A stretch of DNA of 64,000 bases, from assembly GCA_021773195.1 (NCBI GenBank), contig JAJFKN010000020.1, positions 7,570 to 71,569 of the forward strand, given 5' to 3'. Position 1 is the stretch's first letter. Each line of letters opens with the position of its first letter. The stretch comes from Gammaproteobacteria bacterium (GTDB lineage: Bacteria; Pseudomonadota; Gammaproteobacteria; JAKBBU01). Shown one piece after another: positions 20,284 through 20,819 of this stretch. The position numbers and the translations under genes were made by a program. Below the pieces are notes generated by a model that saw only the letters and a program-made list of their open reading frames with translations, did no database searches and was not told the DNA's origin.

Positions 20284-20650
20284 GGGAACATGCACCTCGG
20301 CAACATAACTCAGCCCACCCCTGAATATCGCCCACGTCACCTCGGCAACATAACTCAGCCTACCCCTGAATATCGCCCACGTCACCCCGGAATTTTTCGA
20401 AGAAAAATGTCCGGGGCCCAGAGCTGAGTGGAACGTTTCCCTGGGTCTCCCCTCAGGGGACAGGCCGCGGTCAAGCTGCGGGATGACAGGGTTTGCCGCG
20501 ATGACAGGGTTTGCCGCCGCAAAATATCCAGGGCCCAGTCAGATTAGGTGGTCCCAGCTTTGCTGGGACGCTTGTTTGGACTGGACCCCGGCTTTCGCCG
20601 GGGTGACGTAGTTTTTGCTGGAAACCACTTCACGGCCTTTGCCTGTGAAT
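20284..20650. repeat. composite cluster of dispersed repeats: ~47-bp tandem duplication, palindromic CCCCGGAATTTTTCGAAGAAAAATGTCCGGGG, CCCCTCAGGGGACAGG core, and a ~190-bp unit related to 45151-45328
   Basis: Direct comparison with copies at 41791-41895, 45151-45328, 5897-5985 and 62129-62200. Confidence 0.7.
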
Positions 20651-20819
20651 CGTGGGGCTCTACCTTATCTTTCTCCGTAAAGCGAAATTCACAGTCTAAA
20701 CACTGGGCATAGGGTGGTTCTGCATCCACAGCCATAAAAATGCTGTCTAATTGACCGCATTTTGGACAGGTTGCGCCAGCAATGAATCTTTTGGTCAATT
20801 TTTTCATAGTTTTTCTCAA
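20544..20819 (-). CDS. YheV-like (DUF2387) CxxC...CxxC metal-binding protein with C-terminal extension that reads into the repeat cluster
   Basis: CPKCGQ...CLDCEF zinc-ribbon-like core of ~60 aa. The last ~35 codons (Pro/Ser/Lys-rich) are encoded by the repeat element. Likely start is the ATG at 20807. Confidence 0.45.
   Translation of the reverse strand: MRKTMKKLTKRFIAGATCPKCGQLDSIFMAVDAEPPYAQCLDCEFRFTEKDKVEPHDSQAKAVKWFPAKTTSPRRKPGSSPNKRPSKAGTT

Follow-up and report, generated by a model that had tools for sequence, protein, structure and literature searches.

The analysed stretch (hereafter the window) comprises 64,000 nt of contig JAJFKN010000020.1 from the gammaproteobacterial assembly GCA_021773195.1, and contains a minus-strand yheV-like gene whose 3' end runs into a block of small palindromic repeats at window positions 20293-20612. 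The block is a ~320-bp GC-rich mosaic of hairpin repeats (GC 59% versus 43.4% window-wide), located in a 360-bp gap that separates two convergent genes, the yheV-like gene and an orphan open reading frame (ORF). RNA folding of the whole yheV 3' region with the array gave -196 kcal/mol (z = -5.4 versus shuffles), and the single hairpins of the array have fold z-scores from -3.7 to -6.1. Modules of the block were seen again within the window at 5902, 29795, 41788-41884, 45146 and 62131-62227.

A CGTC-tagged repeat in the reading frame of yheV

Profile searches placed the gene product in the YheV family, as a preliminary description of this DNA had proposed, with matches to Pfam DUF2387 (PF09526; 3.6e-11, 43.4 bits versus a cut-off of 25.9) and to TIGR02443 (2.7e-13, 49.5 bits versus a cut-off of 49.45; ORF residues 9-62), and the four cysteines of its zinc ribbon (C14, C17, C36 and C39) are invariant in the homologue alignment. 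In the 87-aa form, YheV conservation extends to codon T66, at about 20610-20612. The 21 residues that follow WFPAKT constitute a basic tail, TSPRRKPGSSPNKRPSKAGTT, with a pI of 12 and a TAA stop at 20544-20546, the full C-terminus reading WFPAKT-TSPRRKPGS-SPNKRPSKAGTT-stop. GC content is 45% in the conserved part of yheV, 64% in the tail and 74% in a 27-nt hairpin unit at the start of the tail, designated H2.

Read on the minus strand from 20608 to 20582, H2 consists of CGTC / ACCCCGGC / GAAA / GCCGGGGT / CCA, i.e. a CGTC tag (20608-20605), a perfectly paired 8-bp stem, a 4-nt loop and a CCA tail, and its nine codons specify TSPRRKPGS; the hairpin has a z-score of -3.7. This is the build of family CGTC-1 (8-bp stem, 4-nt loop, CCA tail) of the CGTC/TGTC-tagged superfamily of repetitive extragenic palindromes (REPs), defined by Di Nocera, De Gregorio & Rocco (2013, PMC3733652), an article drawn on in part here and below. 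According to that part, the superfamily takes in the Neisseria repeat dRS3 and the Rickettsia palindromic elements (RPEs) RPE-6/4, family CGTC-1 corresponding to dRS3 and to Rickettsia conorii RPE-6, and the tag, alternatively CGTC, TGTC or CCTC, is unpaired and adjoins the stem (PMC3733652). Since H2 is read in frame, part of the basic tail of the annotated 87-aa protein is repeat-encoded.

A strict search with the CGTC-REP frame retrieved five perfect units in 64 kb, versus 0.015 in window shuffles, namely 3522-3548, 20582-20608 (H2), 45146-45174, 46741-46767 and 62199-62227, all in 3' intergenic positions downstream of ORFs. The CCA tail is present in H2 and in the units at 3522 and 46741, and is replaced by CCC at 45146 and by CTA at 62199; TGTC-tag variants occur at 20490 and 62131. 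In a BLAST comparison of the window with itself, the ORF-overlapping stretch 20544-20612 had no significant copy. The only other sequence in the window that it resembles is the 3522/46741 hairpin, at 72% over 29 nt. H2 differs from these ATTCCCGC-stem copies in three positions, all of them fully compensatory stem pairs.

Copies of H2 were found in abundance outside the window. A metagenome scan with the H2 frame (TGGACCCCGG-N6-CCGGGGTGACG) matched at least 120 stretches, where a handful would be expected by chance (a rough hand estimate, made with no tool), and at least 45 metagenome contigs, unrelated to one another, contain the exact 27-mer of H2. Among the matches listed, the loop is identical to that of H2 in 45 of 124, on contigs of 42-73% GC, and the ACCCCGGC stem variant is itself abundant. 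When the block was compared by BLAST with all fetched loci, homology to the metagenome copies covered only 20578-20610; because it ends at 20610, the head of the REP abuts codon T66/T67 of the 87-aa protein. Taken together, the block is very probably an array of CGTC/TGTC-tagged superfamily REP hairpins, one unit of which is read in frame by yheV. Its units share a frame of CGTC or TGTC head, GC-rich stem of 8-9 bp (sometimes longer), 4-5-nt loop and CCA tail; the stem comes in several variants within the window, and most units carry head-side duplications of 'half-stem + tag + 10-35 nt'.

The metagenome copies have further properties of their own. Among the matches listed, the ACCCCGGC-stem REP usually lies tail-to-tail with a ATTCCGGC-stem partner ~20 nt off (contigs L102-L221), and the pair is often followed by ...actttttacga..atca. 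Most of the long ORFs that enter the same REP in metagenome contigs look spurious and only that of contig L218 is protein-like; it ends in ...SPRRKPGSSS and a stop, in the same frame as YheV of the window, and is glycosylase-like by eye only. A literature search for REP-encoded peptide motifs (SFPRKRES, IPAFAGMT and others) gave no relevant papers.

Origin of the YheV tail

The last 11 codons of yheV lie in a second perfect 8-bp hairpin, H1 (z = -6.1), and the post-REP sequence has a GC content of 60%. With its CGTC-like and CCA-like ends, this segment resembles a 3' non-coding REP array, and the nearest YheV homologues finish 1-6 residues past WFPSK, the closest small ones (36-38% identity) terminating in WFPSKPK and WFPSKTSAKTS (the latter is P0006). 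We lean towards the view that the whole 21-aa tail is a former 3' non-coding REP array, read after the original stop was lost or displaced.

A less probable but still plausible course of events is a clean in-frame insertion in the style of the Rickettsia RPEs, in which the ancestral YheV already ended in ...WFPAKTSPNKRPSKAGTT at the present stop, and one 27-nt CGTC REP added exactly nine residues to a 12-aa tail, leaving the stop untouched. The canonical unit of 27 nt equals nine codons, five of the six reading frames through H2 are open, and excision of the exact REP yields a continuous 78-aa ORF ending in ...WFPAKTSPNKRPSKAGTT at the same TAA. The tails of YheV homologues extend up to 21 residues past the conserved W and are rich in S, K, T and P, as in P0006, the segment after H2 has no repeat copies, and CGTC REPs in frame inside genes are documented. 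This scenario is at odds with the resemblance of the post-REP codons to a non-coding array and with homologues that stop within 1-6 residues of the junction. Since excision of the REP preserves both frame and stop, an insertion into an existing tail is inseparable from the loss of an original stop, and the earlier claim that the gene has no stop at the expected place is thus not demonstrable. Nor does the extension comprise the ~35 codons previously given: codons of repeat origin are indeed read in frame at the C-terminus, yet 21 follow WFPAKT and only 9-10 of these (20579-20610) have copies from which that origin can be demonstrated.

It is extremely improbable that the tail is a sequencing or assembly frameshift, or a native YheV tail that resembles the repeat by coincidence. 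Draft assemblies are error-prone in repeats and YheV tails are variable, but all three frames are free of stops from 20629 to 20546, so that correcting a frameshift would yield no short protein; the sequencing or frame error offered as an alternative in the preliminary description was rejected on this ground. Coincidental resemblance is effectively excluded by the CGTC-1 features of the 27-mer and by its identity to at least 45 independent environmental copies.

Several observations weigh against the interpretation of the tail as repeat-derived, or limit its reach. H2 begins its stem with an A-T pair but continues with C-G, at a position where A-T is 'almost invariably' found in CGTC families; the ATTCCCGC copies at 3522 and 46741 follow the A-T rule at both first stem positions. 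H1 copies are absent in the window self-BLAST and in BLAST against the fetched loci, so a repeat origin of the final 11 codons and the stop has only hairpin shape and end motifs behind it. YheV homologues carry 2-21 residues after the conserved W, in variable and often S/K/T/P-rich tails, and no relative above about 50% identity, close enough to show the pre-insertion state, is present in either protein collection: a word-index protein search with the YheV of the window matched only itself, an exhaustive representative search found no small YheV protein above about 46% identity, and a YheV profile search returned nothing closer. Finally, as to genome-wide copy number, a scan of genome contigs with the 17-nt module described below (TCCCCTCAGGGGACAGG) retrieved 100 stretches, all of them chance matches in unrelated taxa (Prevotella/Segatella and GC-rich metagenome-assembled genomes, MAGs).

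Clustered at 90% identity, GlyQ and YheV each stand alone. No sequence exceeds 56% identity to GlyS, the best named match being a Legionellales MAG, and the two nearest glyQS loci (GlyS 55-56%) do not have yheV alongside.

In the sequence of events favoured here, the REP array would be a structural 3' element common to the two convergent genes, and H2 would have arrived in yheV secondarily, as a perfect 27-nt unit placed head-first right after the conserved residues (…WFPAKT) and read in frame as TSPRRKPGS. By analogy with other REPs, the array would most likely act at the DNA or RNA level, through 3'-end hairpin formation, mRNA stabilisation or termination between the convergent genes, and the added predicted peptide is probably a tolerated, disordered basic appendage that is not selected. 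This would be in line with the part of PMC3733652 drawn on, in which REPs are located mostly behind genes, are transcribed, form 3' hairpins and affect mRNA stability, termination or supercoiling.

Class and arrangement of the repeats

[quoted passage not shown] In keeping with this, the modules are dispersed and one is nested within another, and the QMITE1/2 elements of Coxiella, which overlap the 3' ends of genes, lengthen EnhC by 33 aa. However, neither terminal inverted repeats (TIRs) around the block or around a ~100-300-bp unit nor target-site duplications (TSDs) were seen, the pieces that recur in self-BLAST measure just 17-50 nt, and they match the REP definition feature by feature, as units of 27-30 nt; the small QMITE2 copies are themselves described as REPs. 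Conservation does not span the '190-bp unit' proposed to be shared with 45151-45328, since similarity is limited to ~23-35 nt (20465-20487 versus 45151-45173, 91%) and the rest is shared architecture. With no TIRs or TSDs bounding a larger unit and no conserved long unit, 'MITE' is the wrong class and was rejected; a MITE origin of the block is accordingly very unlikely.

Other elements of the block (Table 1) were largely as first described. A tandem duplication is present at its start, with a period of 45 bp in place of the 47 bp first given, and each of its units terminates in a ...GGTGACGT-like half-stem and tag. It leads into the palindrome P1, within which the imperfect palindrome CCCCGGAATTTTTCGAAGAAAAATGTCCGGGG at 20385-20416, reported previously, was recovered (fold z = -4.4). 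The degenerate REP at 20465 has its 3' arm split by a 17-nt module and its TGTC tag at 20490, and is followed by two 18-bp head-side tandem units, GATGACAGGGTTTGCCGC, at 20482-20517 (Tandem Repeats Finder). Its CTTGA-loop type of unit also occurs in contig L225, a distant relative with 55% GlyS identity.

Table 1. Genes and repeat features of the yheV region and related loci (window coordinates; REP, repetitive extragenic palindrome).
Feature	Position	Strand	Remarks
yheV-like gene, 87 aa from ATG	20544-20807	-	91 aa if upstream TTG at 20819 used
Orphan ORF, 188 aa	19617-20183	+	convergent partner of yheV-like gene across block
H2, perfect CGTC-1-type REP, CGTCACCCCGGCGAAAGCCGGGGTCCA	20582-20608	-	27 nt, in frame in yheV, GC 74%
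H1, hairpin GTCCCAGC-AAA-GCTGGGAC	20549-20571	-	CGTC-like and CCA-like ends; just upstream of yheV stop
45-bp tandem repeat x 2.2	20293-20390	+	Tandem Repeats Finder, 96% matches; head side of P1
P1, CGTC-tagged long-stem palindrome CGTCACCCCGGAATTTTTCGAAGAAAAATGTCCGGGGCCCA	20380-20426	+	orientation opposite to H2; second copy 41788-41851
17-nt module TCCCCTCAGGGGACAGG	20448-20464	+	between tail and stem of REP at 20465
Degenerate TGTC-tagged REP, loop CTTGA	20465-20517	-	related to 45146-45174 and L225:12741-12770
Module copy TCCCTCAGGGGACAGG fused to P1-like hairpin	5897-5985	+	loop with different ~31-nt insert
Second P1 copy with 17-nt module in loop (41805-41821)	41788-41884	+	further CCCCTCAGGGG core at 41874-41884
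CGTC REP, TACCGCGG stem, CTTGA loop, with 24-bp x 2.7 head-side tandem	45146-45326	-	86-nt palindrome next
TGTC-tagged REP, ACCCCGAC stem, 17-nt module in 3' arm (62153-62169)	62131-62265	+	between convergent pckA and pilT

The 17-nt module is found in three types of REP: in the loop of the second P1 copy, where tail and stem meet in the REP at 20465, and in the 3' arm of the REP at 62131. Nesting, claimed previously for the P1 copy near 41791, is therefore real and more general than was claimed. At that locus, 41788-41851 equals 20380-20426 plus the 17-nt internal insert ACCTGTCCCCTGAGGGG, the flanks 41788-41808 and 41824-41851 matching 20380-20426 at 100% and 96%, respectively; 62150-62169 is 100% identical to 20445-20464, and when the REP at 20465 is aligned with the two uninterrupted copies, these have a clean gap of 17 nt. 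The REPs at 20465 and 62131, interrupted by the module in junction or arm, fold poorly. The core CCCTCAGGGGACAGG, already noted as recurrent, was located at 5902, 20450, 41809 (minus strand) and 62155, and with one mismatch at 29795 (minus strand), i.e. five matches versus 0.04 expected (two mismatches or fewer), with the form CCCCTCAGGGGACAGG at 20449-20464; the CCCCTCAGGGG core recurs at 41874.

Copies of the module or its core also adjoin ORF stops at 5902-5916, 29795-29809 and 41874-41884, the 29795 copy lying 5 nt past the stop of ORF 29815-30570. By itself, the module folds unstably and is too short for any known mobile element.

Among the other repeat loci of the window, the 375-aa ORF at 41878-43005 (minus strand) does end inside a repeat copy, as stated earlier, its TGA stop (41878-41880) being the TCA loop of CCCCTCAGGGG; the overlap had been overstated, with only the last ~2 codons and the stop lying within the repeat core. 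The locus at 62131-62265 also contains the CGTC REP at 62199-62227 (minus strand), followed by a 20-bp x 2.5 tandem, and the locus at 5897-5985 is downstream of an acyltransferase gene (6051-6791, minus strand). Self-BLAST additionally paired 46741-46788 with 3522-3571, and 62201-62248 with 46743-46787. At 45242-45326, an 86-nt near-perfect palindrome is formed by two inverted CCCCGGATGGCGAAGCCATTCCGGGG hairpins, a REP dimer that could fold into a single long stem-loop.

On their head side, six of the seven REP units bear 2-5.6 tandem copies, 18-45 bp in length, of 'half-stem + TGACG tag + short spacer' (GGAATGACGTTAGTGAGTACA x 5.6 is one example), at 3522-3677, 45146-45220, 46741-46792, 62199-62265, 20465-20517 and 20293-20426; the exception is H2, whose head abuts yheV. 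Partial head duplications beside the same REP are also present in metagenome contigs L214, L160, L125 and L194. These head-side tandems, the 17-nt inserts in three REP types and the precise 27-nt units could be traces of an active nick-and-copy or template-switch mechanism at the CGTC head, an explanation that we regard as unlikely.

No Rfam family reached its gathering score anywhere in the window. The sole sub-threshold match in the block, to the Brucella small RNA BSnc120 (18.7 bits, E = 0.29), is not significant; at 20585-20604 it coincides exactly with the H2 stem-loop, and the BSnc120 model may contain a CGTC-type REP.

Several repeats of other kinds were recorded in the window. A ~150-nt intergenic pair, 48440-48590 (plus strand) and 7340-7495 (minus strand), shares 87% identity and has TIR-like ends (TAGGGCCTG ... 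CAGGCCCTA); with no Rfam match, it is a better MITE candidate than any element of the yheV block. Two copies of a 39-nt repeat, 90% identical and with the hairpin CAGCTGTAATT...AATTACAGCTG, stand at 39984-40022 and 41714-41752, at one end of each of the adjacent minus-strand ORFs 40023-40808 and 40805-41677; the repeat may be a shared regulatory or terminator element. At 46611-46699, hairpin units of the form TTTCCTTCT...AAGGAAAG make up a 34-bp tandem x 2.6 that extends over the 5' end of ORF 45347-46657 (minus strand) and adjoins a CGTC REP, while a 39-nt palindrome (92%) at 11328-11366, between two minus-strand ORFs, is probably a terminator. As for the host, the minus-strand ORF at 4382-5722 gave a partial match to a LegT-like Dot/Icm effector, and at least six of about a dozen ORFs screened had no NCBIfam match. 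The LegT-like fragment supports a Legionellales-like host, and the window is ascribed to a deep-branching, poorly sampled gammaproteobacterial lineage of this kind.

Relation to known repeats and significance

The closest counterpart of the array is family CGTC-1, as described in the part of PMC3733652 drawn on. Likenesses are the CGTC head, 8-bp stem, 4-nt loop and CCA tail, the coexistence of several stem variants per genome, and the placement downstream of ORFs, where the flanking genes are convergent or unidirectional, with occasional in-frame or coding overlap; about 10% of intragenic GTAG/CGTC REPs are at ORF ends, and REP and RPE sequences are read as protein (PMC3733652). That part of the article also presents CGTC REPs as having no dedicated transposase, and none is known to be associated with them. 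The units described here differ in the H2 stem ACCCCGGC, with its C-G second pair in place of A-T, in their Legionellales-like host, since CGTC REPs are described there mainly in alphaproteobacteria, and in the head-side tandem half-units and 17-nt nested module, which are not described in that part (PMC3733652).

The Neisseria intergenic mosaic elements (NIME), composed of dRS3 units and RS spacers (PMC1797815), are similarly arrays of 20-bp hairpins with 20-150-bp spacers near gene ends, with a GC-rich wave profile and a mosaic, variable composition. The dRS3 consensus ATTCCC-N8-GGGAAT is matched exactly at 3525-3544 and 46744-46763 (two versus 0.18 expected), whereas H2 and the other units of the yheV block do not fit the dRS3 arms ATTCCC/GGGAAT; only some units of the window therefore qualify. 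Further differences from NIME, held in 2007 to be confined to Neisseria (PMC1797815), are the shortness of the present arrays (2-5 units) and the fact that no dRS3-targeting phage or recombinase was seen among the ORFs of the window, which were screened in part.

Coxiella burnetii QMITE1/QMITE2 (Wachter et al. 2018, PMC5896051), from a relative of the same order, are also small structured repeats at which the 3' ends of genes may overlap; a protein can gain a new C-terminus from them (EnhC of the Dugway strain, +33 aa), they encode basic peptides, and their small QMITE2 forms are called REPs. Compared by description only, a full QMITE differs in its length of ~190 bp or more and in its TIRs and 7-9-bp direct repeats, none of which are seen here. 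In the Rickettsia RPEs, too, a palindromic repeat of a length that is a multiple of three is read in frame in an otherwise conserved protein; RPE-1 is 100-150 bp long and usually protein-internal, in contrast to the 27-nt unit at the extreme C-terminus of YheV.

Small palindromic repeats at gene 3' ends that become coding are thus already documented in Rickettsia, Coxiella and other bacteria. The preliminary description had rightly pointed to comparable events, which include the Coxiella QMITEs (PMC5896051) and, in the part of PMC3733652 drawn on, the intragenic GTAG/CGTC REPs and Rickettsia RPEs. With the present case, the CGTC-tagged REP superfamily (dRS3, RPE-6) gains a host that is gammaproteobacterial and Legionellales-like, together with a clear in-frame example, and the matches listed show how extremely widespread the ACCCCGGC-stem variant is among environmental genomes. 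In annotation, tails such as ...SPRRKPGS... at a C-terminus should be taken for REP read-through or insertion and not for family-specific sequence. Something new on REP spread might be learned only from the head-side tandems and the nested 17-nt module. If a copying mechanism does operate at the CGTC head, it would also generate in-frame protein extensions, and this deep-branching lineage may be a good place to identify it.

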